In this document: piece after piece, positions 10,757-30,538 of the stretch
Layout of the letters: the number at the start of each line of letters is the position of its first letter
Position numbering within the stretch: position 1 is the stretch's first letter
Source: a virus
Length of the DNA: 64,000 bases
IMG/VR virus record: IMGVR_UViG_3300030430_004991
Location: 1-64,000 of that record
Strand: one strand, 5' to 3'
Notes under the pieces: model-generated
Database searches by the model: none
Seen by the model: only the letters and a program-made list of their open reading frames with translations
Told to the model about the DNA's origin: nothing
Position numbers and translations under genes: made by a program

Positions 10757-10758
10757 TA

Positions 10759-11506: not shown

Positions 11507-11722
11507 TTAACTAGTTGAATTCTTCTCTTTTTGTTCTTTTTTCTTTCGTCGAGCGATTGCACGTTGCTTTGCTCTACGCCGAACATCAGAAGGCTTCTTG
11601 TGGTGCCTTCTATCTTTGACCTCTTCTAGGAGTCCAAGTTTCTTTATTTTTCTTGTAAAACGCCTGATTAGTCTTTCTCCACTCTCATTTCTGCGGGGCT
11701 TGACCTTGTGATTTGTAGCCAT
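11507..11722 (-). CDS. rpsU: Phage-encoded 30S ribosomal protein bS21
   Basis: 71-aa basic protein MATNHKVKPRRNESGERLIRRFTRKIKKLGLLEEVKDRRHHKKPSDVRRR..., matching the bS21 pattern (NES.E..LRRF.R....G...E...R....KPS..RR). Start couples to the upstream stop (TGATG). Confidence 0.88.
   Translation of the reverse strand: MATNHKVKPRRNESGERLIRRFTRKIKKLGLLEEVKDRRHHKKPSDVRRRAKQRAIARRKKKEQKEKNSTS
11508..11514 (-). promoter_or_regulatory. Putative late promoter motif CTAGTTA
   Basis: Overlaps the bS21 stop; 22 nt upstream of ATG 11486. Confidence 0.45.
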
Positions 11723-12138
11723 CAATTCTTTCCTGATAATTTTTGCCAAATCTTTGCTGAGTGTCCGGAAAAAATAGAAGAAATATCAACACCGGGATCA
11801 CTCGGAGCGACACCGGACAGAGGGTCTTGCCCTTGGCCTGATGTTGGTGCTGGCGCGGGCGATGTCCCCTCAAAAAGATTAACACCATTATAAGCGTCTT
11901 TTCCAATAGAATCTAATAGTTTTTTCTTTCTTTGTTTTACTTCTTTCAATTTTTTCTCTTGTATAGCAAAGTCTTGCTTGGGTTGTTGTGTTTGCGTCTC
12001 AAAAATTTGCTGAGACCCTGAGGTCCCTTTCATAACTTCACTAATGATAGTAGAGAGAGCACCTTCTTCAAAGATTACTTCTTTAACGCACTCTTTAATT
12101 AGCGGCTTTAAAATTTTCTTTAGTTCGTTTTTTTTCAT
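11722..12138 (-). CDS. Hypothetical protein of the head module (basic/Glu leader)
   Basis: MKKNELKKILKPLIKECVKEVIFEE leader; NLFEGT and DPGVDIS motifs. Translationally coupled with its neighbours. Confidence 0.6.
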   Translation of the reverse strand: MKKNELKKILKPLIKECVKEVIFEEGALSTIISEVMKGTSGSQQIFETQTQQPKQDFAIQEKKLKEVKQRKKKLLDSIGKDAYNGVNLFEGTSPAPAPTSGQGQDPLSGVAPSDPGVDISSIFSGHSAKIWQKLSGKN

Positions 12139-12704
12139 TTAATCCTCAAATAAATATTATTTTTTTCTGGCGGGTAAGTGTAGATTTTTTGGTCTCCGTC
12201 TAGAATAGCTAGTTCTTTAAACTGTGGTTTTTCTTTTTGATCAACTTCCACGGTTTTATATTCTTGTCCAGTTTTTACATCCACAGCTACTACTCTACCC
12301 TTGTATCTTCTTGCTAAACTTGCCCATAATCCACGAGCAGCCCCTGTCTGACTATCGCCAGAATATAGTGGACCATGATTTGATATCAGGTAATCATAGA
12401 ATTTTTTACTAAAACCTTGCCTTTCTTTTTCTTGTTTTATTGAAAGCGTTGACACTTTATGACCATCTTCAAATTTAACTAAAGATACATACCCAATAGC
12501 ATCTCCCTCAGAATAAAAAATAATTTTTGTATGATCTCCACTGGGAGCAACTTTTACCATCATATCTTGAAATGGTTTTTTTTCATCCGTCACTTTATCT
12601 GCTTCACCAGCAGCCCAATTAACATCTACCCTGCCGCTGCCGACATCTCCTCTCGCTTCAATTTCATTGACAAATCTATTCCAGTTTTCAAATATCTTAT
12701 CCAT
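12135..12704 (-). CDS. Putative GNAT-fold acetyltransferase with ENW-type leader
   Basis: IGYVSL..KVSTLSIKQEKERQGFSKKFYDYL resembles the acetyl-CoA-binding motif A, followed by LYSGDSQT..A..LW. N-terminus MDKIFENWNRFVNE. Confidence 0.5.
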   Translation of the reverse strand: MDKIFENWNRFVNEIEARGDVGSGRVDVNWAAGEADKVTDEKKPFQDMMVKVAPSGDHTKIIFYSEGDAIGYVSLVKFEDGHKVSTLSIKQEKERQGFSKKFYDYLISNHGPLYSGDSQTGAARGLWASLARRYKGRVVAVDVKTGQEYKTVEVDQKEKPQFKELAILDGDQKIYTYPPEKNNIYLRIK

Positions 12705-13318
12705 CAGTCTTCCAAGATTTTTTTAAATAAATCATCAACGATGTTTTGCTTGGCTTCGTTAATTTTATTCTCGTACATCTTACCTTGTTGCTTAGGATAA
12801 ACATAAGCGTTTGGCGTAGAGGGCTCTGAGACAATGTCAAAGCAAATAAGTTCAAAGTCTTCTTGTACAACAATTCCTCCGCCCATTGATTCTTTAACGG
12901 AGCCAAGTCCACGAGAAGAGATGCCTAATTTGACACCAGCGTTAATCAGGTCCTTAAGAATACGACCAGAAGGAGTGTCAAGAACTTTAATTTTGCCCAT
13001 GACATCTTTGCCTTCCCACCAACAATCTGTGACAATGTGAGACACATTTTTTAAATTAATAACAGAATCATCAGGATGGTCAAGTTCTCCGCATGCACGA
13101 TTATCAGCAACTAATTTTTTGTAGTTGTCCATCTCTCTTTTCAAAACTTCATACGGATAAGATCTTCCATTACCATTCTTTTTATCAGCGGTTTGAATAC
13201 GGCCTGATAGATAAATAACACCATTATCCATCTCTCTTTTTTCTCGTTCGTTAAGAAGGTCTCGACAGATACCGTCTTTACACAGTTCATTAAACTCAGT
13301 TAGCAGAATTTTTTTCAT
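12704..13318 (-). CDS. Prohead core protease (T4 gp21-like)
   Basis: Motifs NGNGRSYP, GELDHP, LDTPSG, GISSRGLGS and DIVSEPSTPNA. Confidence 0.93.
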   Translation of the reverse strand: MKKILLTEFNELCKDGICRDLLNEREKREMDNGVIYLSGRIQTADKKNGNGRSYPYEVLKREMDNYKKLVADNRACGELDHPDDSVINLKNVSHIVTDCWWEGKDVMGKIKVLDTPSGRILKDLINAGVKLGISSRGLGSVKESMGGGIVVQEDFELICFDIVSEPSTPNAYVYPKQQGKMYENKINEAKQNIVDDLFKKILED

Positions 13319-13502
13319 TGTGTTTCCTTACCTCTTCTAAAAGTTTATCTATCATAGAATTTAATTTTACATCCGATGTTTTTTCGGCAGCATTTTCTAG
13401 TGCTCTTTCTAAATCAAATAGCGGATCTGATGCTGGTATGTCTTGCATTTCATCATATTCTTCTTTGATTAATTGTTTGAGTCTTTTCGCAGTTAATCTC
13501 AT
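13296..13502 (-). CDS. Small hypothetical protein with MRLT..LKQLIKEE leader
   Basis: 68 aa with GGAG SD. Leader is nearly the same as that of the 20907-21257 protein. Confidence 0.6.
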   Translation of the reverse strand: MRLTAKRLKQLIKEEYDEMQDIPASDPLFDLERALENAAEKTSDVKLNSMIDKLLEEVRKHNEKNSAN

Positions 13503-13539
13503 TTTTTTTCTCCAATTGTGCGGTCTCTCTCCGCTCGCG

Positions 13540-13593
13540 TCAGGAACCTGAACAGCAACGACGAACAGGTTGTAACATCCATTTTTTAGTCAT
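13540..13593 (-). CDS. Unannotated 17-aa peptide MTKKWMLQPVRRCCSGS
   Basis: ATG at 13593 with a GGAG SD ~7 nt upstream, overlapping the stop of the preceding gene. Fills an otherwise empty gap in a fully packed operon. TGA stop is followed by a GCGG-N7-CCGC hairpin. Confidence 0.55.
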   Translation of the reverse strand: MTKKWMLQPVRRCCSGS

Positions 13594-13897
13594 TTTTATC
13601 TCCAGTTCTAAATCCAAAATCATCAACAATCATTGATAGAATGTAACTTGTACCCGCTGAGATACAGCCGCAAACAAATGCATTGATAAATGAATATTCA
13701 AATGTAAATAGTTCCGTAAAACCATTTATCGCCCACATAAACACGCCGGTCCAAAACCCCATACAAAGTGGGCAATGAAATAACGTGTTCCATTTTTTTG
13801 TGTAATCTTTCTTTGGTCTCAAATCCTCAAAAATTTTTCCATAAACGAGAATAAAAGTCATACCGTAACATGCTAAAATAAAATATAATAAATTCAC
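13586..13897 (-). CDS. Small membrane protein with HCPxC motif (DUF1360-like)
   Basis: Three hydrophobic segments and LFHCPLCMGFW. Start placed at GTG 13897, after a GAGGTG SD. Confidence 0.6.
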   Translation of the reverse strand: MNLLYFILACYGMTFILVYGKIFEDLRPKKDYTKKWNTLFHCPLCMGFWTGVFMWAINGFTELFTFEYSFINAFVCGCISAGTSYILSMIVDDFGFRTGDKND

Positions 13898-13905
13898 TAT
13901 CACCT

Positions 13906-14514
13906 CTAGTAAGTGTAACGACCATAAAGGTAAGGCGCAAACATGTTGTTGGTAACAATAGAACCTTTATCGGCCGCCTGCGGGACTTCGCCAAGTTCAG
14001 TAGAGTGCTCTCTGTCCGGTTGTAGTAATGTGTCATCCATCATTTGATCATATGCTTCCATACCTTTCATCATTGGAGTTTCTTCTTTGAACCACTGTGC
14101 GATGTTAACCAAAGCACTTTTTACAGGGTTAAATTTTTTTGACTCTAAAATTTGCGCTTCCATGGAGCCGTAAATGTTACCACCTTGAATTGAGTCATAC
14201 GCTACAATTCCCTTTTTTTTAAGAAATTCAAACATTCTAGACTCTGCGCCGTACACATTATCTGTTAACATTTCTTTAGCAAATGCTACAATTTTTTTCT
14301 TTTCTTGCATTAATACTATGTCAATGTCTTTATGATCAAAAATCATAATGTTTCCATCTAATGATTCCCTAGCATTCAATTCAAAAACATGAGTTTTTAC
14401 GTTGGACTGCATTACTTTTATTGAAACTGTTGGTTTTACATCAACTGATACATCTTTGTCGTCTGATGTTATCACTTCTGTTTCACCTGCCTTTACTAAA
14501 TTAATTCGAACCAT
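13906..14514 (-). CDS. Hypothetical protein of the head module
   Basis: 202-aa ORF abutting its neighbours. Motifs DHKDIDIV, SIQGGNIYGSME and STELGEVP. Confidence 0.65.
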   Translation of the reverse strand: MVRINLVKAGETEVITSDDKDVSVDVKPTVSIKVMQSNVKTHVFELNARESLDGNIMIFDHKDIDIVLMQEKKKIVAFAKEMLTDNVYGAESRMFEFLKKKGIVAYDSIQGGNIYGSMEAQILESKKFNPVKSALVNIAQWFKEETPMMKGMEAYDQMMDDTLLQPDREHSTELGEVPQAADKGSIVTNNMFAPYLYGRYTY

Positions 14515-15321
14515 CTAAACTTCCTCCAATAAATCTTGTATGTAGAAAAGTTTTTTAACCATTTTTTCAGTCAATGGTTGTTCCTTGAAACTTTTCAATA
14601 CCCCCAATACTTCTGTGAGTTTTTTATGATTATTATCTGTTTGATTTTTGCTAATTAGCTTTTCTTGTATTGTTTCTTTTAGGTGGCTTAGTTCTTCATT
14701 GACAAAAACTTTTAGCCCCATGCCATTATCAGAAAAAGATGTAATGTATTTTGTTAGAAGAAGTTTTTGATTTTCTTTGAGGCAGTTTTTGTATGTGTCG
14801 TTAAACTTACTTACAAAAGTTTTATATGTCAAATTGTCAATGTGCTTCATTTGTTTTTTGCTGGTTTCTGATGGAATTAGCAGTGCTTTAACTTTTGTTT
14901 CTACTATCAATCGATTTTTAGCAGTAGATTTGTTGTCTTGAAACCATGAGCCAACTGTTGCAATATCTTTGTAATTTGAAACAAAATTATTAAAAACATC
15001 ACTGCCCAATTGTTGATTAATTTGAGAAATTAATTTGGTCTGGGCGTTAAAAATAGACTTACGATCCAAAGAGTTATAATCTTTTTTTGTTTCAAACAAA
15101 AAACGATCAGTAAAATCTTTTGTCATTTTATCCTTATTTTCTAAAATTGATTTGTACAAACTAAGGTCTTTATACAGTGGAGACCCCTTGCAGAAGTTTT
15201 CTTTAATAATCTTTGTAATTTTTTGTTTTCTATCGCCAAGTTGTCTTACAACGGCTTTTGTTAATTCTTTTACTAAAGATTCGTAAAGAAAAGCGGTATT
15301 TCTTTTCTTATTGTGTTTCAT
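14515..15321 (-). CDS. Portal-adjacent hypothetical protein (MKHNKKRNT type)
   Basis: 268-aa helical protein immediately downstream of the portal. Confidence 0.65.
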   Translation of the reverse strand: MKHNKKRNTAFLYESLVKELTKAVVRQLGDRKQKITKIIKENFCKGSPLYKDLSLYKSILENKDKMTKDFTDRFLFETKKDYNSLDRKSIFNAQTKLISQINQQLGSDVFNNFVSNYKDIATVGSWFQDNKSTAKNRLIVETKVKALLIPSETSKKQMKHIDNLTYKTFVSKFNDTYKNCLKENQKLLLTKYITSFSDNGMGLKVFVNEELSHLKETIQEKLISKNQTDNNHKKLTEVLGVLKSFKEQPLTEKMVKKLFYIQDLLEEV

Positions 15322-17272
15322 CTTCTTTCACCTTTTTTAATAAACTTTCAATTAAGGTATCAACCTGCTTTGATGTATTAAATAGTTTCTGTTCTTCGTT
15401 ATCGTTTATACTTTCTGTTACACCACGAGCGAGAGAGTCTAGTCCACCAAACCCTGATTTTCCATGGAATGTAGTTCTGTACGTGTTTCCATATTCACCT
15501 GTGGCTTGATTTTTTATGTTTTTGCTTCTTCCGCCTTTAGAATAAGAGGTCTGGTGTCTTTTGTATTTTCCTCTTTTATATTTTGGCTCATCGTCTTTTT
15601 TAGCCGGTGGCTCAGCCAGAATGACATCATCTTTTTCATCACCCCCTTCGGCACCAGGGCTCTTGTCCCCAGCAGCCTTGTCTCCGGCATCACCACCTAA
15701 ATCTAATCCTCCACCAGCATCACCACCAGCGCCTAAGTCTCCAAGGCCTCCAGCGTCACCACCTGTGCCTAGGTCTCCAAGACCACCACCGCCACCTCCA
15801 GCATCGGCTCCACCTTGAGCAGCGGCCTCTAGGTTAGCAGAGAATTTTTTATCGTAGAACATTTCTCGCTGCATGCGTATGAACTCTTCTTCGGATAATC
15901 CAAATAAATGTTCTGCTACCCAGCGTTTTGAGAAATAACCATCTGTTGCATTTCCAGCAACAGAGAATTTTTTATCCCAATGTTCGAGTTCTTGTAATTC
16001 TGCAATTTTTGAAGGATTGTTCAGCCCTAAGTCAAAAGACAATAAATCTTCATTTCGAAAGCCCATTGTAAAAAGATGGATGATACCAATCTTTTCAAGT
16101 TCGGCAATAACAACCCTTTGTAGTCTTTGAATTGTTCTAGCAAATCTAATGTCTTTTTGTGCCAACGTTGTTTTATCTTCTGTGGCACCATCACCCATTG
16201 TAAGGTAGGATTGTGGTATCTTAAGAGCAGAAAATAATTTGTCCCTCAAATATTTAACATCTTCAATTGTTGCAGTCATAGCACCACCGGGTAGGTTTAC
16301 AATATCAGTGTTTGACGTACCACGAATAGGAATGTAATAATCTTCTTCAATTGACAGAGGATTGTAACGAAGATCAAGTCGTCCTGTTTTAGGATCGGTA
16401 ACTTGATGTCGCTTCATTTGTGTCATTACTTTTTGCATGTATTGCTCCACATCTTGTGGTGGAATGTTTCCAACATCAATTTTGAATACACGCCTCTCAG
16501 GTGCTCGAACAATACGATAGGCCATCATAGCATCTTCTAGAAGTGTAAGTTGTCTCCAGATTCTGCGTGCCGGTTCTAGAACAGAAGTTCCGTATGGGGC
16601 ATGCTTATCGTTGCCAAGAATGCGAAAATGAGCCATTTGCCAATTTTCCAATGTCATACCAGCAGAGTTCCACTGATATTGCACATAATTTGGATTTGAA
16701 TCATCTTCGCCTTCCAATCTTTCAATCTCTTGCGGAGGAAGACCAATACATGCTCTAATACCAGTGGCCTCTTCGATATCTAAGTAAAGAAATAAATCTC
16801 CGTATTTACACATAGTTCGGCACCACCCAAAAAGATTGTGATTAATGTTGAGAACATTATGGTACAAATCATTTAGAATAGTTTTTATTTCGTCGTTCGG
16901 ACACTTAATTCTTAACATCGGCTGTAGTGCGGAGTGCGTTGTCATTTCGTCTGCGTAAATATCTAACGATGACGCGCATTCCGGTGTATATTCCATTTGA
17001 TCAAAATCAATATAGCGCTCTGCTCTATTTCTATTAGAGATCATGTTAATAGCCATGATGTTCATGGGGTTGTATTCTTGTTTTTTAAATTGTTTACCAC
17101 TAGCAGATGTAAATCTAGAGGAATACATGTCTAGTTGTCGTCTTCTAAGTTGACGACCTTGTTGTGTCCTTCTTTGTGTTATAGGTCCTGAAAATAATCT
17201 TGTTAAAGATCTAAAAAGACTATTCTCTGGATTATAGGGATTCTTTCCCAAATTTCTTTTTTTCTTAGCCAT
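15308..17272 (-). CDS. Portal protein (T4 gp20-like)
   Basis: Motifs LDIYADE, QLTLLEDAMMAYRIVRAPERRVFKIDVGN, EDYYIP.RG, IEDVKY and DIRFARTIQRLQ. Confidence 0.95.
   Translation of the reverse strand: MAKKKRNLGKNPYNPENSLFRSLTRLFSGPITQRRTQQGRQLRRRQLDMYSSRFTSASGKQFKKQEYNPMNIMAINMISNRNRAERYIDFDQMEYTPECASSLDIYADEMTTHSALQPMLRIKCPNDEIKTILNDLYHNVLNINHNLFGWCRTMCKYGDLFLYLDIEEATGIRACIGLPPQEIERLEGEDDSNPNYVQYQWNSAGMTLENWQMAHFRILGNDKHAPYGTSVLEPARRIWRQLTLLEDAMMAYRIVRAPERRVFKIDVGNIPPQDVEQYMQKVMTQMKRHQVTDPKTGRLDLRYNPLSIEEDYYIPIRGTSNTDIVNLPGGAMTATIEDVKYLRDKLFSALKIPQSYLTMGDGATEDKTTLAQKDIRFARTIQRLQRVVIAELEKIGIIHLFTMGFRNEDLLSFDLGLNNPSKIAELQELEHWDKKFSVAGNATDGYFSKRWVAEHLFGLSEEEFIRMQREMFYDKKFSANLEAAAQGGADAGGGGGGLGDLGTGGDAGGLGDLGAGGDAGGGLDLGGDAGDKAAGDKSPGAEGGDEKDDVILAEPPAKKDDEPKYKRGKYKRHQTSYSKGGRSKNIKNQATGEYGNTYRTTFHGKSGFGGLDSLARGVTESINDNEEQKLFNTSKQVDTLIESLLKKVKEDETQ
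15690..15815 (-). repeat. Gly/Asp-rich low-complexity repeat in the portal C-terminal tail
   Basis: GGLGDLGTGGDA-GGLGDLGAGGDA-GGGLDLGGDAG. Confidence 0.8.
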
Positions 17273-17275
17273 TTA

Positions 17276-18859
17276 TTATCCTTTGAAAATCCAAGCAAAG
17301 TTTCTAGCAATTTTTAACTCTTCTTTATATTTAGTTTCGAAATCAGCATTATACCCATCTTGACCTTTTATGGTAGTGTTCAAAACATTTTTTTTCATGT
17401 ACATACCATCAATCATTGCTTTTCTGTATTGTAAGTCTTTTTCTGACACTTCAAGTGCTGTATCTCTTACCCAGCACATAATAGATAAACACATGACGAT
17501 GTCATCATGATAAGATCTCATTGCTTGTGGTTTTCCGTTGTTCCAAATAAAAGTCCTAAACTCATCAAATGCTCTTGCTGAAGGTATTTTTATTATTCTG
17601 TTGCGAATAAATTCTTCTAGTTTTGCTACAATTAAAGGCCTAGTTTTTGTTGATGTTGTAAACCCACCAATAGCATTATTCATAAACTCGCCTTGTGCTG
17701 GATCTACAAATTCATGCGTTCCCTTCGCAGAATAATAAAGGTTGTCATATCCTAAATCTTTTAGCTTTTCAAATACAGAAATACCAATTCCATTATTTTC
17801 AACAACAAGAAGACATTTTCCATATTCCATTCCAGCAGAATGTAACATTTGAGCATACATATCTAAGGAAGGCTTACCTTGATACTCTGCTACGATTTCC
17901 ATTCTATTCACATTGAGTACATGAAAAACAGAGTTGTCAGCGCCATCGCCTCTAGCAACATCGGCAACAAGTAAATAAGAAGTTCCCTCCTGGTACTTTT
18001 CCCATATCCAAAAATTTCTATCATATCCTGTCCTATACGTTGGTTCTTTGATTTGTTCTTGAAGCCAAGCAATATCATCTGGATGAATAACAGTATCACC
18101 TGAGGTGTTAAAATTGCACTCAAGTTCTTGCGCTATTTGTCTTCGAGACATGTTCTTAGTTTCTTTTTCAAACCACTGTTGATCTCTTTCGGGATGAACA
18201 TCCCACGGTAAATTAACCGGTTTAAAGTCTGATTCTCCATTTGCAGCCGCTATGTATGTTTTGTGAAACCAGTTTCCCACACCATTTGGAGTAGATAGTG
18301 CAATACAGCGACCACCAGTGGATAGTGTAGGATAGAGACCTGTCCATAGATCATCAAGTCCGTCAATGTGAGCGGCCTCATCTATAATCAACAAAGACAG
18401 TGCTTCCGAACGACCAGCATCTCCAGATGTTGATGCTGCTTTGATTTGTGATCCATTGGAGAGTTCAAAAGAGGTTCTATTATCAACTTTAATTTTTGCA
18501 ACTCTCATCCATTCTGGCAGATACTGCATTATGTTTTTTACTTTCTTTACAAGGTTTGCTGCGGTTTGAAATTTTGTGGCGATCACAAGTATGTTTTTAT
18601 CTCTGTGAAACAACATAAACCAAACAGCATAAGCGGCTGAGATCGTAGAAATACCTAGCTGCCTTGCTTTAAGAATCACAGTAAAACGAAAATCATTAAA
18701 ATCATTTATCAAATCATCTTGATAAGGATAGGTTTTAAACGGTATCAACCCATGCATGGGGTGGGAAATCCGACAATAATTATTTATAAAGTATTGTGGG
18801 TTTTTACCAGATTTAACAATTTCTTTTACAATTTCTTTCTTAGAAAGAGAGAAAGCCAT
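17276..18859 (-). CDS. Terminase large subunit (T4 gp17-like)
   Basis: Walker A KARQLGIST, Walker B LLIIDEAA, STPNG, and nuclease motifs ADVARG, ENN and HDDIVM. Confidence 0.95.
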   Translation of the reverse strand: MAFSLSKKEIVKEIVKSGKNPQYFINNYCRISHPMHGLIPFKTYPYQDDLINDFNDFRFTVILKARQLGISTISAAYAVWFMLFHRDKNILVIATKFQTAANLVKKVKNIMQYLPEWMRVAKIKVDNRTSFELSNGSQIKAASTSGDAGRSEALSLLIIDEAAHIDGLDDLWTGLYPTLSTGGRCIALSTPNGVGNWFHKTYIAAANGESDFKPVNLPWDVHPERDQQWFEKETKNMSRRQIAQELECNFNTSGDTVIHPDDIAWLQEQIKEPTYRTGYDRNFWIWEKYQEGTSYLLVADVARGDGADNSVFHVLNVNRMEIVAEYQGKPSLDMYAQMLHSAGMEYGKCLLVVENNGIGISVFEKLKDLGYDNLYYSAKGTHEFVDPAQGEFMNNAIGGFTTSTKTRPLIVAKLEEFIRNRIIKIPSARAFDEFRTFIWNNGKPQAMRSYHDDIVMCLSIMCWVRDTALEVSEKDLQYRKAMIDGMYMKKNVLNTTIKGQDGYNADFETKYKEELKIARNFAWIFKG

Positions 18860-19792: not shown

Positions 19793-20195
19793 ATTTTCTT
19801 TGCCATTCTTTTGAAATTTTGTCCTCTTTTATTGGCCCACCCTTAGCCCAAGTTCTACATGCTCTGGCGGAGTGGCACTTAAAATGATGCATCCAACAAT
19901 AACCTAATCTTCCTTCTCCATCAGAAGTAGGTCCAGGCATACACTCATCCATTCTAGGTGATATGTCAAACGCCGTACAGTTTCCACACAGAGATTTTTT
20001 TGCAGCCTCTTCTGTTGTGTTCCAATACTCCGCAATGTCTTTCCAGTAATCACCGGGCTCATCAACATTAAGTGGGCCGTACTGAATGTGTTCTGCTTTT
20101 ATAGAGGCGTCACGATTTTTTGTATTTAATTTTAAATCTTGTGTCGCCTCAGGGCAAATCATTTTTTTAAGTCTTTTTAAAATTCTTATTTTCAT
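19782..20195 (-). CDS. Cys-rich protein, possibly HiPIP-like metal/Fe-S binding, with MKIRILK leader
   Basis: CGNCTAF...GYC...CHSARACRTW. Confidence 0.5.
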   Translation of the reverse strand: MKIRILKRLKKMICPEATQDLKLNTKNRDASIKAEHIQYGPLNVDEPGDYWKDIAEYWNTTEEAAKKSLCGNCTAFDISPRMDECMPGPTSDGEGRLGYCWMHHFKCHSARACRTWAKGGPIKEDKISKEWQRKYEK

Positions 20196-20584
20196 TGAGT
20201 TAATCCCGGCTTGACAGCATACATGATCCCAACTGAAATTCCCGCACCGGCAATAAATCCACCAATGAGCGGCCAGATGTTATTCTGGGGCCTCAGTTCA
20301 TCTATGTGTTCATCTTGTAATCTAATTAGTTCGTTAAGTTTCTCAATCTCCGCGTCTGTTTTGGACTTCAAGACATCATAGCGATATTTCTCTAAAATTT
20401 TGTTCTCATTAACTTTAAACTCAACAAGCGCATCACATGTTAAATCTTTTGTTACACTATCTTCAACAAGGATTCTCATCGCTGCTTCGTTCAATAGGCG
20501 ACCATTCCATGGAACAGTTTCACCTGTTTTCATATCTTTGTATTTTGGCTCTTCCGCAAACAGAAGAGAAATTAAAAATATCAT
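20192..20584 (-). CDS. Membrane-anchored coiled-coil protein
   Basis: Hydrophobic N-terminus, central heptad-like region and C-terminal TM segment (IWPLIGGFIAGAGISVGIMYAV). Confidence 0.55.
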   Translation of the reverse strand: MIFLISLLFAEEPKYKDMKTGETVPWNGRLLNEAAMRILVEDSVTKDLTCDALVEFKVNENKILEKYRYDVLKSKTDAEIEKLNELIRLQDEHIDELRPQNNIWPLIGGFIAGAGISVGIMYAVKPGLTQ

Positions 20585-20910
20585 TCTTCCCTCTCAATGC
20601 CTTTTGATTTTAAGAAATCCTCGGTCTTAACCTTCTTCGAGTCTCTTAAAAACTTATGCTTTTTTTCCTCGAAATTTAGAACGTTTTCAGCAATAGAAGC
20701 GTCTTTGGTTTCCACGAGGTCTTCCAAGTCCTCCACAAGTTCTTCGCGTTGTTTTTCTTCTAAATCTTTCCATTTTTCATAAAATTTTACTTTCTGTTTC
20801 TTTGCGTCTTTTGAGCGTCCAAGCAAATAGAAAGCAATGACAGTAATGATCATTAAGATCCACTGCCAATACTTTATTACAAAATTTACGGTTTTTGCCC
20901 ACCAAGTCAT
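20581..20910 (-). CDS. N-terminal TM plus coiled-coil protein (possibly spanin-like)
   Basis: YWQWILMIITVIAFYLLG followed by a charged helical tail. Confidence 0.5.
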   Translation of the reverse strand: MTWWAKTVNFVIKYWQWILMIITVIAFYLLGRSKDAKKQKVKFYEKWKDLEEKQREELVEDLEDLVETKDASIAENVLNFEEKKHKFLRDSKKVKTEDFLKSKGIEREE

Positions 20911-21257
20911 TGGTTTTCCGCATTCTCAATTTTCTGCAGAACCATAGCTTTAACGTCTTCGTCAAAATCACTTAAATTATCGCTGACATCCTCGACACTA
21001 GAAATGTCCCTTAAATCGATTTCTGCGATCGAGCCCCCGGCTTCTATGTATAGGATACCGTAGTCACCATAAACGTCCGCGAGATTTTCCAAACTGGCGA
21101 CACCAGTTTCACTCTTGGTATATTTTAATGCTGCTTCAATACTGTCCTCGTCTTGTTCGTCTTGTGAAATCACATCAACATGGACACCATCCGATTCTGT
21201 TAGTCTTGTCAATTCTTCTTTGATTAATTTTTTTAATAATTTTGTTGTTAATTTCAT
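20907..21257 (-). CDS. Acidic hypothetical protein with MKLTTKLLKKLIKEE leader
   Basis: Start reassigned to ATG 21257 (AGGA SD) just after the upstream stop. Basic leader followed by a very acidic body. Confidence 0.6.
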   Translation of the reverse strand: MKLTTKLLKKLIKEELTRLTESDGVHVDVISQDEQDEDSIEAALKYTKSETGVASLENLADVYGDYGILYIEAGGSIAEIDLRDISSVEDVSDNLSDFDEDVKAMVLQKIENAENQ

Positions 21258-21261
21258 TTTT

Positions 21262-21525
21262 TTATCCTTTCCAAACTTTAGCAACGTCAATAACTGACTG
21301 TCCACCAATGTACATGGCAGCAATCATCGCCCAAGTGTCAGGATCGAGTCCGGACCAGATGAGCAAAGCAGTTGCACTAGCAAAAACAAGAAGTTTACGA
21401 GATACGGCTTTTCCAAGAGCCTCATCAACTACTCCTAGCTTTTGTTCTTTGCAACATTCGCAATGTTCGCAGCAATCACACTTGTGGTCATGCTCGCAAT
21501 TTTCCTCACAATTTTCATTATGCAT
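21262..21525 (-). CDS. Two-TM holin-like protein with Cys/His-rich N-terminus
   Basis: SRKLLVFASATALLIWSG and WAMIAAMYIGGQSVID hydrophobic segments. 8 Cys and 4 His in the first 25 aa. Confidence 0.5.
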   Translation of the reverse strand: MHNENCEENCEHDHKCDCCEHCECCKEQKLGVVDEALGKAVSRKLLVFASATALLIWSGLDPDTWAMIAAMYIGGQSVIDVAKVWKG

Positions 21526-23593: not shown

Positions 23594-23630
23594 AATAAAA
23601 AATCCTATTTAGCTTTTACACTAAATAGGA
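23594..23630 (-). promoter_or_regulatory. Hairpin combining a putative late promoter, a terminator-like structure and a sequestered RBS
   Basis: Minus strand TCCTATTTAG-TGTAAAAG-CTAAATAGGA-TTTTTTATT-ATG, a perfect 10-bp stem. Confidence 0.7.
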
Positions 23631-23639
23631 CGTTATTTG

Positions 23640-26600
23640 TTAAATGTTTACCTTGGCATAGCCATCAATTTTATCAATGTCTATCGTCATGTCCACCACA
23701 TCTTTTAGATGATCAAGGTGAGAGATAATCAAAACTGTTTTGAATTGGTTCTTTATCATCTGCAATAGTCTTGTGAACCCTTCCATGTGTTCTTGATCTA
23801 ATGCCGTTGCCGGTTCGTCAAGAATAAACAGTTCGGACTTTGGAAGATTGGTTATCGCAATCATCGCAAGACGTATGGCCATCGAAGCAATTGTCTTTTC
23901 TGCTCCTGATCCCATGGACAACGGACGAGCCGCATAGTTGGGATGTTTGATGGAGAGTTCAAGTTTGTTGTCATGATTCTCAAAGAACACTTCAAAGTCA
24001 ACAATGTTGGCTAAGATCTTTGCGATCTCTTGATTGATAATCGGTAGCTTTTGCTGAATGATCTCGTATGAAATACCATTAGCATGCATGCAAGTCGTGT
24101 AGATGTCGAAAGCACGATACTCGTTCATAACATCTTTGTATTCATTCTTCTCGTTGTAAAGACCACGAATAACTTCTTTCATTGCCGCTTCTTCCACAAG
24201 ATACTCTTGAGAAAGTTTATTGCATTCCTTCAGTGTTACCTTGTTCTCTTTAATTTTCTTTATAAGAGCCTTTTGGTCTCCGTACAAAGATTCCTTATTC
24301 TCGATAGCTTCACGATTATCTTCATATTCTTTAGCTTTCGCTTCGAGAGCATCAATCTCGTTAGTTAACAAAGCAATGGTTGCTTCGTTTTTCTGAATAG
24401 ACATTTTTTGTCTTTCCATGTTAATCTCACAAGAGTCAATCTCAGATCTAAGATCATTAAACTTTTGGATGTTATTTTGAATTGTTTTAATGTCATACTC
24501 TTCAAGTTTAACTGTCGCTTGATGGAGAGACTCGGCGAGATCATCTAACAAATTCATGTTATAGGGCAGATCTGCTTTTGCTTTCTCTGCTTGTTTCACA
24601 AACTCATTGTCACAACAGAACTCACAGTTTGGATCATACTTGTGATTATGAAGCATCGCTGCTGTTTTGTCTAAGTTTTTTAACACGGTCTTCTGGTGCT
24701 TCACTTGTTGCTCAAAGGCTTTGACAAGTTCTTCTTGGTGCTTTGCTTCTTTTAGCAGAGACATTAGGCGATCATATTGTTTACTGTCGACCTGTTCACA
24801 TGTTTGTTCATAAAACTTTTCTAGTCTCTCAACATGTTCTTGTGAATGTAAATTCTGTGAGAGCAGTTTAGTTTTCTTTGTTTTCTTAAACGCTATCTCT
24901 TTGGAAACTTGATTGATGTCAATAATCTCCGCAGGAATTGCGTCGATTGTTTTCTTAACCTCCGCAAGTTCAAGTTCAAACTTTTCTATAGAACAAGTCA
25001 GTTTTTCACATTTATTAACCTGCTCGTCGATGTCCATTCGAATGTCCTCTAGTGTTTCTGTTTTTTTGCGTATTTGTTCGTCAAACTTCTTGCTCTCCAT
25101 GCGCTTAATTACACCACGAAGATCAGCAGCATCCTTACGAGCCAATTTATACTTTTGATCAAAGATCTGCAGGTCTAGAAATTTAGCGATAATTTCTTTT
25201 CGTTTAGTAGAGCCCTCTCGCAAGAAAGACATAGAGTCTAGTTGAGATGCCATTGACGTTAAAAAGAAGTCATCAATTGTACCGAAGTGCTTACGAATGT
25301 TAGCATCGGTTTCGTTTCTGGTTGTACCATTCTTTGACTCAAAGATACCAGCAGTTGTTTTAGAAAAATCTAGATCTACTTTGGATTCTATTGTTTCTTT
25401 CCCTTTTAGTTTCTTTGTGTACTTATTAAGGTTTCGAGTAATCTCGAAAGCGTCATGACCTGCTTCAAGTTTTATTTTACACTTGGCATACTGTTTGTTT
25501 TGGTTGATGATGTGAACATTCTTTCGCTCTCCTTTCGAAGTTGTATTATAAATGTTAAATAACACACTGTCGATAATAGAAGACTTTCCTGAATAATTTT
25601 TACCAAAGATTCCGACAAGTCCGGATAATTTTTCAAAATTAATCTTATTCTTCTCGCCGTAGTTGAAGAGGTTATCCCACTCAATCTCTTTAATTTTCCA
25701 AACAACATTACGTGATACCTCCTCTGATTCTTCAACAATTTGATTGTATTTTTTATTTAACTCTAAAATCTTATCCATAACGCCATCGTCCATGTCAAGT
25801 TCGCTGCAATACTGTTTTATGTATTTTTCTTGAACAGAAAGATCTCGCAGGTTCTCATTCAAAACTGCTTTACCTATCAAAGATGTAGACGAAGAGTTGG
25901 TGGTGCCATTGTTAATAAAAGAAACAGAATAGGGTTGCCATTTCTTTTGGCAATAATCACACGCTGCTCTTAATTTCATAGGCGAAATGTTAGAAGAGGC
26001 ACGTATTCTAAGACGACAGCCCTTTGGCACTATTGTGTTGGGTACTTGTCCTTCCGGTGTTAAGTCTATTGTCACGAACGGTCTGGGGTTTAGTACTGAG
26101 ACATGCTGACAATCCCAATCGTATTTATCTCGTATGTTCCACATGAGAAAACCTTTGTTAATTGACTCGCCAAAGTTTTGTTGAATCGTAGAGCCAGCAT
26201 ATCTTACTCGTCCTTTGAGATCCATTTTCTGTTGCTTGTGAATGTCACCCAGCATGCTAAAGTCAAAATCGCTGAAAATATCAATAGAATCTTCGCCTTC
26301 TTCAATAGTGTAACCTTGTGAGGTTTGGCATCCGTGAATAGACCCGTGATACAAGCCGATATTAATACACTCTCTGTTAGTCGGTTTAACCCAGTTTTCT
26401 CTATCAAAGACCGATAGAACGTTGAGAGTGATCTTTTCATTTATTTTTGTTTCTCCGGAATTTTTAAGAAGATGAATATTTTTGTGACCCAATGCATCTA
26501 CAATCGGAGAAATTGCATCCTGCCTAGTGTCGTTCTTAAGATTACCATCATGGTTTCCTAGTATAATATAAGTAGGAGCAATGTCTCCCAAGTTATGCAA

Positions 26601-26789
26601 AAAACTTGCACACATTTGGAAAAATTCCGGTGATAATTGCGTTTTAGTGTGTGCGATGTCACCGGTGTGTACGATAATGTCGGGAGACATTTGCCGCAGT
26701 TTTTTATAAAGATCTTCGAACGCTAGTTTGTATTCGTAGTGATACTTTAAATTTCTAATGTGTGTATCTGATATATGTGCTATTTTCAT
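23640..26789 (-). CDS. Fused Mre11/SbcD nuclease - Rad50/SbcC ATPase (T4 gp47-gp46-like)
   Basis: N-terminal metallophosphoesterase motifs SDTH, TGD, GNHD, LGDIH and YAGS. Then Walker A GKNYSGKS, coiled coil with Zn-hook-like CEFC, signature SMGSGAE, Walker B FILDEP and ISH. Confidence 0.9.
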   Translation of the reverse strand: MKIAHISDTHIRNLKYHYEYKLAFEDLYKKLRQMSPDIIVHTGDIAHTKTQLSPEFFQMCASFLHNLGDIAPTYIILGNHDGNLKNDTRQDAISPIVDALGHKNIHLLKNSGETKINEKITLNVLSVFDRENWVKPTNRECINIGLYHGSIHGCQTSQGYTIEEGEDSIDIFSDFDFSMLGDIHKQQKMDLKGRVRYAGSTIQQNFGESINKGFLMWNIRDKYDWDCQHVSVLNPRPFVTIDLTPEGQVPNTIVPKGCRLRIRASSNISPMKLRAACDYCQKKWQPYSVSFINNGTTNSSSTSLIGKAVLNENLRDLSVQEKYIKQYCSELDMDDGVMDKILELNKKYNQIVEESEEVSRNVVWKIKEIEWDNLFNYGEKNKINFEKLSGLVGIFGKNYSGKSSIIDSVLFNIYNTTSKGERKNVHIINQNKQYAKCKIKLEAGHDAFEITRNLNKYTKKLKGKETIESKVDLDFSKTTAGIFESKNGTTRNETDANIRKHFGTIDDFFLTSMASQLDSMSFLREGSTKRKEIIAKFLDLQIFDQKYKLARKDAADLRGVIKRMESKKFDEQIRKKTETLEDIRMDIDEQVNKCEKLTCSIEKFELELAEVKKTIDAIPAEIIDINQVSKEIAFKKTKKTKLLSQNLHSQEHVERLEKFYEQTCEQVDSKQYDRLMSLLKEAKHQEELVKAFEQQVKHQKTVLKNLDKTAAMLHNHKYDPNCEFCCDNEFVKQAEKAKADLPYNMNLLDDLAESLHQATVKLEEYDIKTIQNNIQKFNDLRSEIDSCEINMERQKMSIQKNEATIALLTNEIDALEAKAKEYEDNREAIENKESLYGDQKALIKKIKENKVTLKECNKLSQEYLVEEAAMKEVIRGLYNEKNEYKDVMNEYRAFDIYTTCMHANGISYEIIQQKLPIINQEIAKILANIVDFEVFFENHDNKLELSIKHPNYAARPLSMGSGAEKTIASMAIRLAMIAITNLPKSELFILDEPATALDQEHMEGFTRLLQMIKNQFKTVLIISHLDHLKDVVDMTIDIDKIDGYAKVNI

Positions 26790-26797
26790 GTTACCTC

Positions 26798-27148
26798 CTA
26801 ATAGTTTCTAGTTTTATAGCGACCACGGCCACTGTGGATTTTGCCAACAAAGCCAACTCGCTTCATTTCTTCTTTCCACTCTTTGCCGTGGTTGTGATAA
26901 GGTCTTTCCTCATAAAAAACTTCAACAGCGTGATGGCACATCTCGTGCAACAAAATGTTGAGTTTTTGGTAGTGCGTCAGTTTTTTGTCTATTTCTATGT
27001 AAGACTCTGTCCCTTCTTCTTCATCAGGGTAATGATAAAGACCTTCCGCACGCTCAGCGCTTAAGTCTCTTATTTTTACAGGGATCTTTGTTAGTTTTCC
27101 ATCCCAATATTTTTTATTAAATTCATTAAACTTATTTGTCCAGTACAT
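26798..27148 (-). CDS. SprT-like zinc metalloprotease
   Basis: FNKKYWDGKL, LLHEMCH (HExxH) and HGKEWK motifs. Confidence 0.8.
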   Translation of the reverse strand: MYWTNKFNEFNKKYWDGKLTKIPVKIRDLSAERAEGLYHYPDEEEGTESYIEIDKKLTHYQKLNILLHEMCHHAVEVFYEERPYHNHGKEWKEEMKRVGFVGKIHSGRGRYKTRNY

Positions 27149-27177
27149 GTTTCCTCCTCAAGAATCTGTATACATAT

Positions 27178-27206
27178 ATAATATCACGTTATCTTCGACT
27201 TGTCAA
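27178..27206 (-). promoter_or_regulatory. Sigma70-type promoter for the SprT / Mre11-Rad50 operon
   Basis: TTGACA-17 nt-TATTAT with extended -10 (CGTGA). Confidence 0.8.
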
Positions 27207-27216
27207 GTATTTTTTT

Positions 27217-27223
27217 CTATTTA
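27217..27223 (+). promoter_or_regulatory. Putative late promoter motif CTATTTA (plus strand)
   Basis: 29 nt upstream of the lone plus-strand gene; orientation follows the gene. Confidence 0.5.
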
Positions 27224-27251
27224 TTTATAACAAGACTTGGGAGGGTTAGAT

Positions 27252-27428
27252 GTGGAATATGTCGTTTTTGGTATTATTGTTATTGTTGCTGGTGGTCTTG
27301 CCGGTTATGAATTGATAGAGGGTATTATTGCGGGTATTAAGTTAGATGGAGATGATGAAGAAATTTTTGCTCCAATTGCAGTCTTCTCTTTGTTAGTTTT
27401 TTTTGCCGGCTTATCATATTTTGGCTAA
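27252..27428 (+). CDS. Small two-TM membrane protein; only plausible plus-strand gene
   Basis: GGGAGGG SD, then GTG at 27252 giving (M)EYVVFGIIVIVAGG...IAVFSLLVFFAGLSYFG. Lies mostly in an intergenic gap, with CTATTTA upstream at 27217. Confidence 0.55.
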   Translation: MEYVVFGIIVIVAGGLAGYELIEGIIAGIKLDGDDEEIFAPIAVFSLLVFFAGLSYFG

Positions 27429-28349
27429 TTGGTTGTAAAAATTAATTTCATCTAAATCTGGCTCTATCGCTTGAGACATTCTAGATAGAAACTGTTTGCG
27501 TGTCATAGACCCTACATCTTCAACATTCGAAGTATCAATAATCTTGACATCGACATCGTATTTGAATAGGGACTTTATCATGTAGTCTTGCTTCTTCTTA
27601 GCATCTTCATCTAAAGCAAGATACACTGGGGAATCATTAAGAACAATCGCTTGAAATAGCTTACTCTCTTCGCGCAATGTTGAGCCAAGAATAGGAATTG
27701 CATTTTGTCCGGCGATAATTGCATCGAACAAACCTTCCACCAAGACAACCGGTTCATCCCAATCTACAAACAATTCATTAAACACAACGTTTTTACTTAT
27801 TGGAGGATTCAAGTACTTCATTCTGTGTCCTACATAAGAACGAGCAATAAAATAGTTGAGATTACCTGAGTTATTAAATGACGGCACAATTATTCTTCCG
27901 CGATAGCGTCCCTCAGGACAATACCCAATCTTCCACATAAGTATTTCTTTCTTGGTGATTCCTCTTTCGTATAGGTATTCCAAAGGCGCCTTAGAAGTCT
28001 TTGGCAGTCTTTTGTTACACAAAGACACGAAATGCGGTGGTAGTTCCGTAACTTGTTCGATTTCTTCATCATTCATCTCCATAAACATTTGGTCAAATTC
28101 AGAAAGATCTAGACGGCCATCGAGTTCTAGCCATTTTTGTTTTTGTTGATAAGTACCAAACTTTCGTACAAGTCTGTAAATATTTTTACCGCGCGTATCA
28201 CAAACCCAACATTTAAATGCATTAACACCAAAATTGATTGACATTTTCTTTTTATGATGTCCACAAAATGGACATTCAAATAAAAATTCACTTGATGATT
28301 GCCTATAGCCACCAAGAATGTCTCGTATAATTCTTAATTTTTCTTCCAT
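27414..28349 (-). CDS. DNA primase (DnaG/TOPRIM type)
   Basis: Zn finger CPFC..HH...CWVC, YLYERGI, RIIVPS, ARSY, KYLNP, and TOPRIM VLVEGLFD and ALDEDA. Confidence 0.88.
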   Translation of the reverse strand: MEEKLRIIRDILGGYRQSSSEFLFECPFCGHHKKKMSINFGVNAFKCWVCDTRGKNIYRLVRKFGTYQQKQKWLELDGRLDLSEFDQMFMEMNDEEIEQVTELPPHFVSLCNKRLPKTSKAPLEYLYERGITKKEILMWKIGYCPEGRYRGRIIVPSFNNSGNLNYFIARSYVGHRMKYLNPPISKNVVFNELFVDWDEPVVLVEGLFDAIIAGQNAIPILGSTLREESKLFQAIVLNDSPVYLALDEDAKKKQDYMIKSLFKYDVDVKIIDTSNVEDVGSMTRKQFLSRMSQAIEPDLDEINFYNQLAKI

Positions 28350-28369
28350 GTTTCCTCCGTCTCAAATAC

Positions 28370-28398
28370 ATATTATCACGGAGTCTAAAAATTGTCAA
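28370..28398 (-). promoter_or_regulatory. Sigma70-type promoter for the primase
   Basis: TTGACA-17 nt-TAATAT with extended -10 (CGTGA). The -35 overlaps the stop of the RuvC-like gene. Confidence 0.7.
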
Positions 28399-28910
28399 AT
28401 ATTTATTTTGGAAAATCCAGCCAATGCCACAACAATCGCATCTGCCATGTCATCTGTCCCGGGTTTAGGGTTTCCATGCCTAGTTAACTCTACTATAAAA
28501 TGTTTTGGATATTTATTTTCAACCCATTCAATAATTTTCTTTTTAGTATCTTCGCCACGCTTAATTTTGAGACCAACAAGGCCCCTAGCTTTATTCGCCG
28601 CGATAAGTTCTGGGTTACGGCCAAATACTCTACGAACTGCAAAAGAACACATGCCATTAAATCTCTGGAGTTTTGCCATGGTACCAGCAGTTGTTTTACC
28701 ACCACCAAACATTGTGAAAGGTTCTTCTACGAAAACGTTTTTAATTTTATACTCTTTACTAATACCTTTTAAGAATTGGAAAAAAATTTCTGCTCTGTCT
28801 TCTAACTGCAGGGGCTTAAACTTCATTACATTGTGTTCAATTAAATTCTTATCATAATCTAAAATACAATAACCTATTTTACTTGTGCTAACATCTAAAC
28901 CTAAAATCAT
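28395..28910 (-). CDS. RuvC-like Holliday junction resolvase
   Basis: ILGLDVSTSKIG, FVEEP and DDMADAIVVA: RNase H-fold acidic residues. Confidence 0.8.
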   Translation of the reverse strand: MILGLDVSTSKIGYCILDYDKNLIEHNVMKFKPLQLEDRAEIFFQFLKGISKEYKIKNVFVEEPFTMFGGGKTTAGTMAKLQRFNGMCSFAVRRVFGRNPELIAANKARGLVGLKIKRGEDTKKKIIEWVENKYPKHFIVELTRHGNPKPGTDDMADAIVVALAGFSKINI

Positions 28911-28926
28911 AAAAAACCTCTAATTT

Positions 28927-28955
28927 ATTATAACACGTTTTTATAGATTTGTCAA
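28927..28955 (-). promoter_or_regulatory. Consensus sigma70 promoter for the RuvC-like gene
   Basis: Perfect TTGACA-17 nt-TATAAT with extended -10 (CGTGT). Confidence 0.88.
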
Positions 28956-28958
28956 GTA

Positions 28959-29369
28959 TTATTTTGGGGGAACGTAAGGTTTTTCTTTCTGCACTAAACT
29001 TTCGGCCCATTTTAAATCCTCTGGTGATGCTTTTTTAAGAAAATCATCAATTGCCTTCAATAAATTTTGGGCATCTAAGTTTAATCTATCGGGTTTTTCA
29101 TTCTCAGGTGTTTTTGACACGATTTCCAAATCTTCTAGGGCCTTTGAGTATCCTATCGCTTTATCAATGTCTTTGGTTTTTTTTACTCTATTTTTTGCAA
29201 AAGCGTGTGCTACTTCAACTGTTTTAGCGTCATACCCCTCAACTCCGGCTTGTGCTGGTCTCCCAAGCATTCCGCCCATAGCCAAGCCACCAGCCAAAGC
29301 AATGTCTTTTAAGGACTCTTCTATTTTTTTTATAGTTTCCTTGTTTTCCTTTAAAATTCTTATTTTCAT
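28959..29369 (-). CDS. Hypothetical protein with MKIRILKE leader and hydrophobic segment
   Basis: MKIRILKENKETIKKIEESLKDIALAGGLAMGGMLG; AGGAG SD. Confidence 0.6.
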   Translation of the reverse strand: MKIRILKENKETIKKIEESLKDIALAGGLAMGGMLGRPAQAGVEGYDAKTVEVAHAFAKNRVKKTKDIDKAIGYSKALEDLEIVSKTPENEKPDRLNLDAQNLLKAIDDFLKKASPEDLKWAESLVQKEKPYVPPK

Positions 29370-29384
29370 TTTTTCTCCTACTAA

Positions 29385-30530: not shown

Positions 30531-30538
30531 GAGGCCCC

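Follow-up and report, generated by a model that had tools for sequence, protein, structure and literature searches.

Shared N-terminal leaders on unrelated small proteins in the head gene region of a marine T4-like phage: candidate prohead-targeting propeptides

This study asked why otherwise unrelated proteins, encoded in and around the head gene region of a virus, should begin with the same short sequences. The locus lies on IMG/VR virus record IMGVR_UViG_3300030430_004991, a 79.3-kb contig with all of its genes on the minus strand; its first 64 kb (positions 1 to 64,000) are the stretch of DNA analyzed here, termed the window. An earlier reading made from the letters alone (the sequence-only reading) had picked out three types of N-terminal leader, and proposed that they are portable address tags that load diverse cargo into the prohead for injection into the next host, by analogy with the tags of phage T4 internal proteins that the gp21 protease removes. 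All of the N-termini it listed were recovered at start codons on the minus strand. Two of the three leader types, 2 and 3, are real and far more general than first noted, and for these the proposed tie to the gp21-like protease drew support from a candidate I-K-E site, selection at the protein level, co-occurrence with Peptidase_S77, the likeness of a conserved head protein (c138), and a depletion of [LI]-x-E sites. It did not extend to type 1, or to the protein that starts at 12138. On balance, sequence comparisons suggest that the type-2 and type-3 leaders are propeptides that would target their proteins to the prohead core, and would be cleaved from them after loading.

The contig was estimated by CheckV to be 38% complete, so the phage genome is probably about 200 kb in length. 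Its head module is of the T4 type, with genes for the large terminase subunit (TerL), a gp20-like portal, a Peptidase_S77 (gp21) protease, an acidic scaffold-like protein, and the start of a gp23-like capsid protein. That a gp21-like protease is encoded, as the sequence-only reading had held, was borne out by the Pfam match (PF03420), by similarity to the head maturation proteases of phrog_207 (E-value 9e-60), and by 35% identity to T4 gp21 over 173 amino acids. In the portal protein there is 38-41% identity to the nearest deposited phages, which are immuto (of Flavobacterium) and Mel-JY01 (of Microcystis).

The leaders and the proteins that carry them

Related loci were anchored on the protease gene, and 80 were fetched of more than 592. 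Many non-orthologous open reading frames (ORFs) inserted between the conserved head genes of these 80 loci begin with MK[LI]TK..LKQIIKEEL. The pool from which leaders were drawn consisted of 205 related loci together with this genome; it gave 378 matches to the type-2 profile, with the consensus M-K-[IL]-T-K-x-Q-L-K-Q-I-I-K-E-E-[LI]. In a logo of 353 unique leaders, E14 was present in 100%, I12 in 97%, E15 in 95% and K13 in 84%. Conservation dropped sharply beyond position 16, and a second [LIVM]-x-E was found at position 21 or 22 in about 60% of the leaders. The leader hidden Markov model (HMM) gave 118 matches in the first, oriented 80 loci, every one of them on the coding strand; the first residue was Met in 108, and there was no upstream in-frame Met in 97. 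An N-terminal position was likewise found in 80 further loci, about 94% of the pooled set starting at Met. E-values reached 1e-9 within single loci, and a degenerate DNA pattern for type 2 recovered more than 120 further IMG/VR stretches among the matches listed.

Selection on the leader is at the level of the protein. Leu8 is encoded by all six codons, identity across leaders is 0.54 at third codon positions versus 0.75 at positions 1 and 2, and 348 of the 353 leaders are distinct at the DNA level. As synonymous codons are free to vary and the amino acids are nearly invariant, it is the peptide, and not the DNA, upon which selection acts. An ordinary GGAG ribosome-binding site lies upstream.

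Two type-2 proteins are encoded in the window, the 68- and 116-amino acid proteins starting at 13502 and 21257, and the six frames of the 79-kb genome gave no other match to the leader HMM. The shorter protein is encoded in the slot between c105 and the protease gene, and had a single ortholog among the 80 related loci; the longer had no ortholog in those loci, and no Pfam or PHROG family. Across the related loci, type-2 genes occupied fixed slots among the head genes, which lay between c187 and TerL (22 loci), c105 and the protease (18), c125 and c187 (15), the portal and c268 (14), and the protease and c138 (9). None of these genes lay downstream of c138.

A third start that the sequence-only reading had assigned to type 2, at 12138, belongs to c138, a conserved core gene of the head module, and not to cargo. 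The gene also occurs in jumbo relatives. Residues 4-30 of c138 were aligned with the leader profile by hhalign at a probability of 77.5% (E 1.9e-5), and its structural model was extended and helical (predicted template modeling score, pTM, 0.25). Given this alignment of its N-terminus, and its conservation throughout the family, c138 is likely to be the model for the tag. Two similar sequences were seen in other head proteins. The TerL proteins of this genome and of two related loci (L044, L060) begin M(K)LTKxEIVKE[IL]VK.., a loosely tag-like start that the leader profile did not score as significant; the likeness may be coincidental, or it may mean that the helix motif serves more generally in docking. 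The T4 prohead core protein gp67 (L239) contains ..IDLIKEEK.., in which the LIKEE core of the marine tag recurs.

No Pfam family models the type-2 tag, and neither motif strings nor a topical search of the literature gave any description of it, the topic returning only work on T4, SPN3US and P1. A tblastn search of 50,697 deposited phage genomes with a two-tag protein (E <= 10) gave only spurious alignments of 25-29%. Among cellular genomes (596 Gb), just 31 stretches matched the type-2 pattern. Those labelled Clostridia had no HMM match at E < 1; the profile matches came from other contigs of metagenome-assembled genomes (MAGs), several of them with tandem arrays of tagged genes, which makes it probable that they are mis-binned phage DNA. 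Two contigs of 101 kb (L226, PBIO01000025.1) and 306 kb (L232, NHDW01000006.1), binned as Halobacteriovorax and Methylococcaceae, carried 14-15 tagged genes within 8 kb each, with an S77 protease in the same MAG assemblies, and are probably mis-binned phage contigs.

The type-3 leader, noted at first on one protein (start 12704), proved to be a member of a true leader family of 54 instances spread over 24 body clusters, with the consensus K-L-I-M-E-N-W-R-R-F-L-x-E and an ending of F-[LV]-x-E. An AlphaFold2 model of this 189-amino acid protein (predicted local distance difference test score, pLDDT, 68) had an alpha/beta body, preceded by residues 1-24 with values below 50. The top Foldseek matches of the model were all GNAT acetyltransferases, but weak (E 3e-3 or worse, template modeling scores 0.35-0.47), and PF13673 was detected in one ortholog and not in the window protein itself, which had no Pfam match. 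In the closest cultured relative, Flavobacterium phage vB_FspM_immuto_2-6A (L081, 11952-13842), a 75-amino acid gene after the protease starts with MENNFDIHKWQAKFLKE, which is type-3-like, and the product of a 360-amino acid gene preceding the protease includes ..KEHFIAEA, which recalls the end of the T4 capsid-targeting sequence.

The type-1 motif, MKIRILK, is common to three genes of this genome, in register at their start codons, as first observed, but did not hold up as a general leader. Its degenerate DNA pattern matched 58 stretches in all of IMG/VR, in mixed contexts, against about 36 estimated for chance, and 23 of the 58 lay at the starts of ORFs of at least 60 amino acids. With a count so near to the chance estimate, type 1 is not established as a leader family, and support is weak both for it and for the copy at the C-terminus of the exonuclease. 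The particulars reported for it are correct: positions 20176-20196 and 29350-29370 share 21 identical nucleotides, and the exonuclease does carry a C-terminal ..KIKILKEN copy (its C-terminus reads ..KRIKIKILKENRNA). Orthologs of the 137-amino acid Cys-rich protein (L033, L049) retain a basic-hydrophobic N-terminus, and that of the 136-amino acid protein in the closest relative (L270) retains MKIRILKEN. The 691-amino acid exonuclease is homologous (E 8e-8), with N-termini in register, to a 358-amino acid exonuclease (L005) that has a canonical type-2 leader, so that a DnaQ-like exonuclease is found under different leaders. The sequence CTANTTA was seen in just one of the seven window start regions inspected, which was not a systematic promoter test.

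Cargo bodies and their cleavage sites

Behind the common leader, the bodies of the tagged proteins are very diverse. The 328 complete type-2 bodies, of median length 111 amino acids, fell into 261 BLAST clusters, 223 of which were singletons. Pfam and PHROGs searches with the tagged proteins of the window and 110 cargo representatives were mostly empty; about seven of the 100 largest representatives had a Pfam domain (AAA_33, GNAT, RNase_T, FliG_C and others). In a collection of 5.8 billion proteins, from which 8,000 candidates were scored, at least 6,697 clusters (90% identity) match the tag profile, and 116 of the 120 best database matches have two tag-cargo modules in one ORF. Many database proteins (P0001, P0002, P0004, P0016, P0039 and others, and also L232) hold two or three tag-plus-cargo modules in frame, the internal tags keeping their Met; such ORFs look like recent fusions of adjacent cassettes, or like natural polyproteins that the protease would separate.

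The relationship of these proteins to the protease was explored through gene content and through site statistics. An S77 protease was detected in 18 of the 30 tagged contigs, a count made without a base rate, and in each of the seven whose completeness is 64% or more. The 30 contigs are all pieces of large genomes, and their summed completeness predicts about 14 S77 matches at one copy each.

In 254 non-homologous cargo bodies, [LI]xE occurred at 0.73 of the expected number (z = -5.8), and 129 of the bodies were without any such site. Control motifs in the same bodies were all in excess ([LI]xD 1.33, Ex[LI] 1.33, [LI]xK 1.25, VxE 1.17), and the E/D ratio was 0.55 (bootstrap 95% confidence interval 0.47-0.65). 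The other 54 proteins of the genome, which provided the baseline, gave 1.18 for [LI]xE and 1.17 for [LI]xD; they were used in place of a control set of untagged accessory ORFs (39 clusters), which was dropped as small and contaminated by diverged tags. The result was replicated in 113 clusters from a public protein collection (0.79 for [LI]xE versus 1.56 for [LI]xD), and type-3 cargo showed the same trend (0.88 versus 1.30). This is the Glu-specific, directional avoidance of [LI]-x-E expected of proteins that survive a gp21-type protease. The motif was enriched in the scaffold-like family (1.99), c138 (4.0) and c268 (3.0), as expected of core proteins that the protease degrades.

The protease itself (..FKKILED), the portal (..LLKKVKEDETQ) and c268 (..YIQDLLEEV) have [LIV]-x-E a few residues from their C-terminal ends, a placement that recalls how T4 gp21 and Alt are reported to be processed at their C-termini.

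Head genes and neighboring features

The positions of the leader-bearing proteins, the head genes, and several neighboring features are collected in the table.

Table. Features of the window discussed in the text, with positions counted from the first nucleotide of the window
Feature	Position	Strand	Basis or remarks
gp23-like major capsid protein, N-terminal 83 aa, truncated by contig end	1..249	-	predicted maturation site ..ELLRE/A (slash, cut)
Scaffold-like acidic protein, 403 aa, gp22 analogue	274..1485	-	N-terminus, [LI]xE content
Three tandem paralogs (118, 123, 379 aa)	9617-11486	-	shared N- and C-terminal blocks
Ribosomal protein S21 homolog	11507-11749	-	phrog_21469, E 2e-10
c138, conserved head-module core protein	11722..12138	-	72/80 loci, directly after protease; type-2-like N-terminus ..LKKILKPLIKECIKEVIFEE
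GNAT-like protein, 189 aa	12135..12704	-	type-3 leader MDKIFENWNRFVNE; type-3 family member
Prohead protease, T4 gp21 family, 204 aa	12704..13318	-	Pfam PF03420 Peptidase_S77, 112 bits, E 3e-32
Accessory protein, 68 aa	13296..13502	-	type-2 leader MRLTAKRLKQLIKEE; leader HMM E 5.5e-9
c268, conserved, after portal gene, [LI]xE-rich	14515..15321	-	75/80 related loci
Portal protein, T4 gp20 family	15308..17272	-	phrog_213, E 3e-73
Terminase large subunit (TerL)	17276..18859	-	phrog_2, E 3e-51
Cys-rich protein, 137 aa	19782..20195	-	type-1 N-terminus MKIRILKRLKK; sequence; no family match
c130, c109, c87, small conserved proteins	20192-20910 and 21262-21525	-	predicted membrane segments
Accessory protein, 116 aa	20907..21257 (ATG at 21257)	-	type-2 leader MKLTTKLLKKLIKEE; leader HMM E 2.3e-7
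DnaQ/RNase T-like exonuclease, 691 aa	21518..23593	-	start MKIRIKKQLSE, end ..KIKILKENRNA; Pfam RNase_T, E 2.8e-8
Protein of 136 aa	28959..29369	-	type-1 N-terminus MKIRILKEN; sequence, 21-nt identity
Paralog set, structural-looking	29385-31639 and 48596-50110	-	no family match
Paralog set, structural-looking	31650-32567 and 37299-38243	-	no family match

Only the start of the capsid gene lies on the contig, and a full-length relative in L049 matched T4 gp23 at E 4e-28. The motif LL[RK]E[AS] is kept across the capsid family; T4 gp23 is cut at FLTE/A in the corresponding place, and mature gp23 begins, in the alignment, about 16 residues ahead of the conserved SGDVEGF block. The predicted maturation site, LL[RK]E/[AS], is consistent with [LI]-x-E. 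The scaffold-like protein (w1485) contains 19 [LI]xE sites and is without a Pfam or PHROG match; its N-terminus resembles that of the protein preceding the gp23-like capsid gene in Flavobacterium phage immuto. Homologs of c268 were found in immuto and in jumbo relatives. When c138, c268 and the scaffold-like protein were compared with T4 gp67, gp68 and gp22 by BLASTP, no significant similarity was found, the protease being the only one to match its counterpart (gp21).

The neighborhood holds several other features. Directly after c138 is a homolog of ribosomal protein S21, a translation gene inside the head module, which is present in 67 of the 80 related loci. Beyond it are three tandem paralogs with a common block, ..Y[TN]xGLxNVGSYxxxGxP, at the N-terminus and with ..TGSGVxE at the C-terminus; the largest has a Laminin_G_3/ConA-like insert (E 1.6e-15), and the number of copies differs among relatives. 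Two more paralog sets, structural-looking and without a family match, sit amid giant ORFs of 1298, 2158 and 2223 amino acids. One set has common C-termini (..YTFKLKLDI, ..FTVRVRLDY, ..YTFKIRVEQDEY), and the other common N-termini (..L[TE].HGRK[LM]L[AS]KG). Between the recombination and head genes are the small conserved proteins c130, c109 and c87, which flank insertion slots of tagged genes and may represent a lysis or membrane module.

Possible functions of the leaders and what they would mean

The capsid-targeting sequence (CTS) of T4 is the obvious point of reference. It is 10 residues long and directs internal proteins to the scaffolding core; cleavage at L/I-x-E removes it, it is able to load foreign proteins, and the internal-protein genes are highly variable among T-even phages (PMC9026906, PMC3012670). 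The T4 internal proteins are basic and bind DNA (PMC9026906). The present system shares with that of T4 (the propeptides of IPI, IPII, IPIII and Alt, and gp21) a short N-terminal tag on unrelated small proteins with an [LI]-x-E end, a protease of the gp21 (S77) family, a gp20-like portal, a gp23-like capsid protein, and hypervariable cargo genes. The differences are also clear. By eye, the T4 sequence MKTYQEFIAE shows no resemblance to the marine consensus MK[IL]TKxQLKQIIKEE, and the marine tag is longer, at 14-22 residues; the handful of cargo proteins in T4 compares with hundreds to thousands of candidate families here; relatives have tandem arrays of at least 14 tagged genes and multi-module fused ORFs, unlike T4; and the cargo is acidic rather than basic. 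Sequence comparison thus suggests a system like that of T4 on every count that could be tested computationally, save the sequence and length of the tag, the scale, the arrays and fusions, and the acidic cargo. By analogy, the type-2 tag is probably an enlarged version of the T4 capsid-loading signal.

Other systems are less close. In phages phiKZ, 201phi2-1 and SPN3US, a diverged homolog of gp21 cleaves many proteins inside the head after Glu, among them ejection and inner-body proteins with propeptides, and these propeptides can have redundant sites (PMC9026906). The motif of the phiKZ (gp175) and SPN3US (gp245) proteases has very few determinants beyond Glu, as against a Leu or Ile at the third position before the cut in the present case. 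We know of no report of one conserved leader common to the propeptides of these three phages. In the Dar antirestriction system of P1, anti-defence cargo is reported to be loaded during head morphogenesis and delivered with the DNA (PMC9024508, PMC12810830); its capsid lineage and loading hierarchy differ from those considered here, and it is not known to have a common short leader over many cargo families. A different comparison is offered by the cargo-loading peptides of encapsulins, short terminal sequences by which cargo of diverse kinds is brought into a shell of the HK97 fold. They usually lie at the C-terminus, and there is neither removal by a protease nor delivery into another cell.

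For the type-2 and type-3 leaders, the following course of events is proposed. At the N-terminus, the leader would form a short amphipathic helix, which is either a copy of the start of c138 or is held in common with it, and would dock an unrelated accessory protein into the scaffolding core during prohead assembly. The S77 protease would then cut after Glu in [LI]-x-E, with I12-K13-E14 as the prime candidate and the second [LIVM]-x-E at position 21 or 22 as another, and so would free the cargo inside the head. The site-rich scaffold-like proteins (w1485, c138 and c268) would be degraded by the protease, and the cargo body is proposed to survive it through having been purged of [LI]-x-E sites. 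The steps that we infer are docking, cleavage, retention in the virion, and ejection into the next host; of these, ejection is the least certain, with its chances put somewhat short of even.

Several observations weigh against this scheme. The residue that follows E14 is Glu in 95% of leaders, and in the [LI]xE sites of the scaffold-like protein is mostly Ala or Ser, which suggests that E14 may serve in binding, and that the true cut may lie further downstream. Judged as small, basic, DNA-binding cargo, the bodies are small (see above) and not basic: their median isoelectric point is 5.05, with 80% below 7 and 7% above 9. In jumbo relatives, the tagged genes are found in long tandem arrays. 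Large marine phage contigs are often T4-like, which bears upon the co-occurrence of tag and protease, and the z-scores for enrichment in c138 and c268 rest on non-independent orthologs. Finally, a tblastn search of the same 50,697 deposited phage genomes with the tag (24-residue query, E <= 1) found none, although a short query and the low-complexity filter limit the sensitivity of such a search.

The strongest competing explanation takes the leader to be a helix for assembly or interaction, which brings accessory proteins to the prohead core, the portal or some other hub; there they would meet the protease, but be neither retained nor delivered. They could act while the head assembles, as auxiliary scaffold, size-determination or chaperone-like factors, or they could exit before DNA fills the head. 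The likeness of the leader to the N-terminus of the scaffold-like core protein c138, the interleaving of tagged genes with head-assembly genes, and the acidity of the cargo, which is shared with T4 gp67, gp68 and scaffolds and not with the basic internal proteins, are all in keeping with such a role. However, 261 unrelated and mostly singleton bodies fit a structural role poorly, such turnover being typical of arms-race effectors, and the bodies are depleted of cleavage sites where true core proteins are enriched in them, a pattern that points to selection for survival of the body. A purely assembly-related function is therefore considered unlikely, but it is the alternative to be taken most seriously.

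It is considerably less probable that the leader serves as the mark by which a different phage enzyme recognizes, and then modifies, its many substrates, as leaders do in ribosomally synthesized and post-translationally modified peptides. Leader-guided modification, too, has as its signature one short sequence at the N-termini of many small, unrelated proteins, but the depletion of [LI]-x-E, and not of E-x-[LI] or [LI]-x-D, indicates a Glu-specific protease. A radical-SAM recognition tag was considered and rejected: PF04055 is absent from this genome and was found in one of five tagged genomes with a completeness of 79-96%, S77 being present in all five.

Scarcely any more credible is the idea that the shared sequence matters chiefly as DNA, as a recombination linker encoding a functionless peptide. 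Leader pairs within a locus have a nucleotide identity of 0.758, compared with 0.682 between loci, runs of at least 20 nucleotides are common to 39 of 337 within-locus pairs, and both the 21-nucleotide identity in the window and the many ORFs with two or three in-frame modules fit with recombination. Against this, nearly all of the leaders differ in their DNA, and it is the amino acids that are held nearly invariant, so that it is the peptide that is selected, with recombination no more than a by-product. The leader DNA probably does serve additionally as microhomology for the shuffling, duplication and fusion of cassettes.

The weakest alternative, that AT-rich 5' codon bias or a translation ramp yields Lys/Ile-rich N-termini by chance, and which the sequence-only reading had itself raised, may hold for type 1 alone, given the near-chance number and mixed contexts of its matches, but has almost no prospect for type 2, which lies far beyond such expectation in its E-values, its strict confinement to the coding strand, its mostly first-Met position, and its rarity in cellular DNA. 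An explanation at the level of mRNA or codon bias was rejected for types 2 and 3.

If the leaders are indeed prohead-targeting propeptides, a bolder and more tentative extension, for which the odds are held to be lower again than for ejection itself, is that they mark an ocean-wide, hyper-diverse library of effectors that are loaded in advance into the heads of large uncultured T4-like phages, trimmed by the head protease, and injected along with the DNA to disarm host defences. Such a library would comprise ORFan families by the thousand, most of them acidic, with nucleases, acetyltransferases and P-loop kinases among them, and with bodies purged of the cut site. Many small proteins of marine T4-like phages that lack an assigned role would thereby gain a location, inside the head, and a timing, as the first to enter the cell, and the 16-residue tag would become a key with which to search viral dark matter for anti-defence proteins of the first strike. 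As a statistical flag, directional [LI]-x-E depletion can mark proteins exposed to the protease in any phage that encodes one of the gp21 type, and the leader is a candidate loading tag for capsid engineering. For the biology of these phages, it would mean that the internal-protein principle of T4, with its few basic proteins, has been hugely scaled up in nature and extended to acidic cargo.

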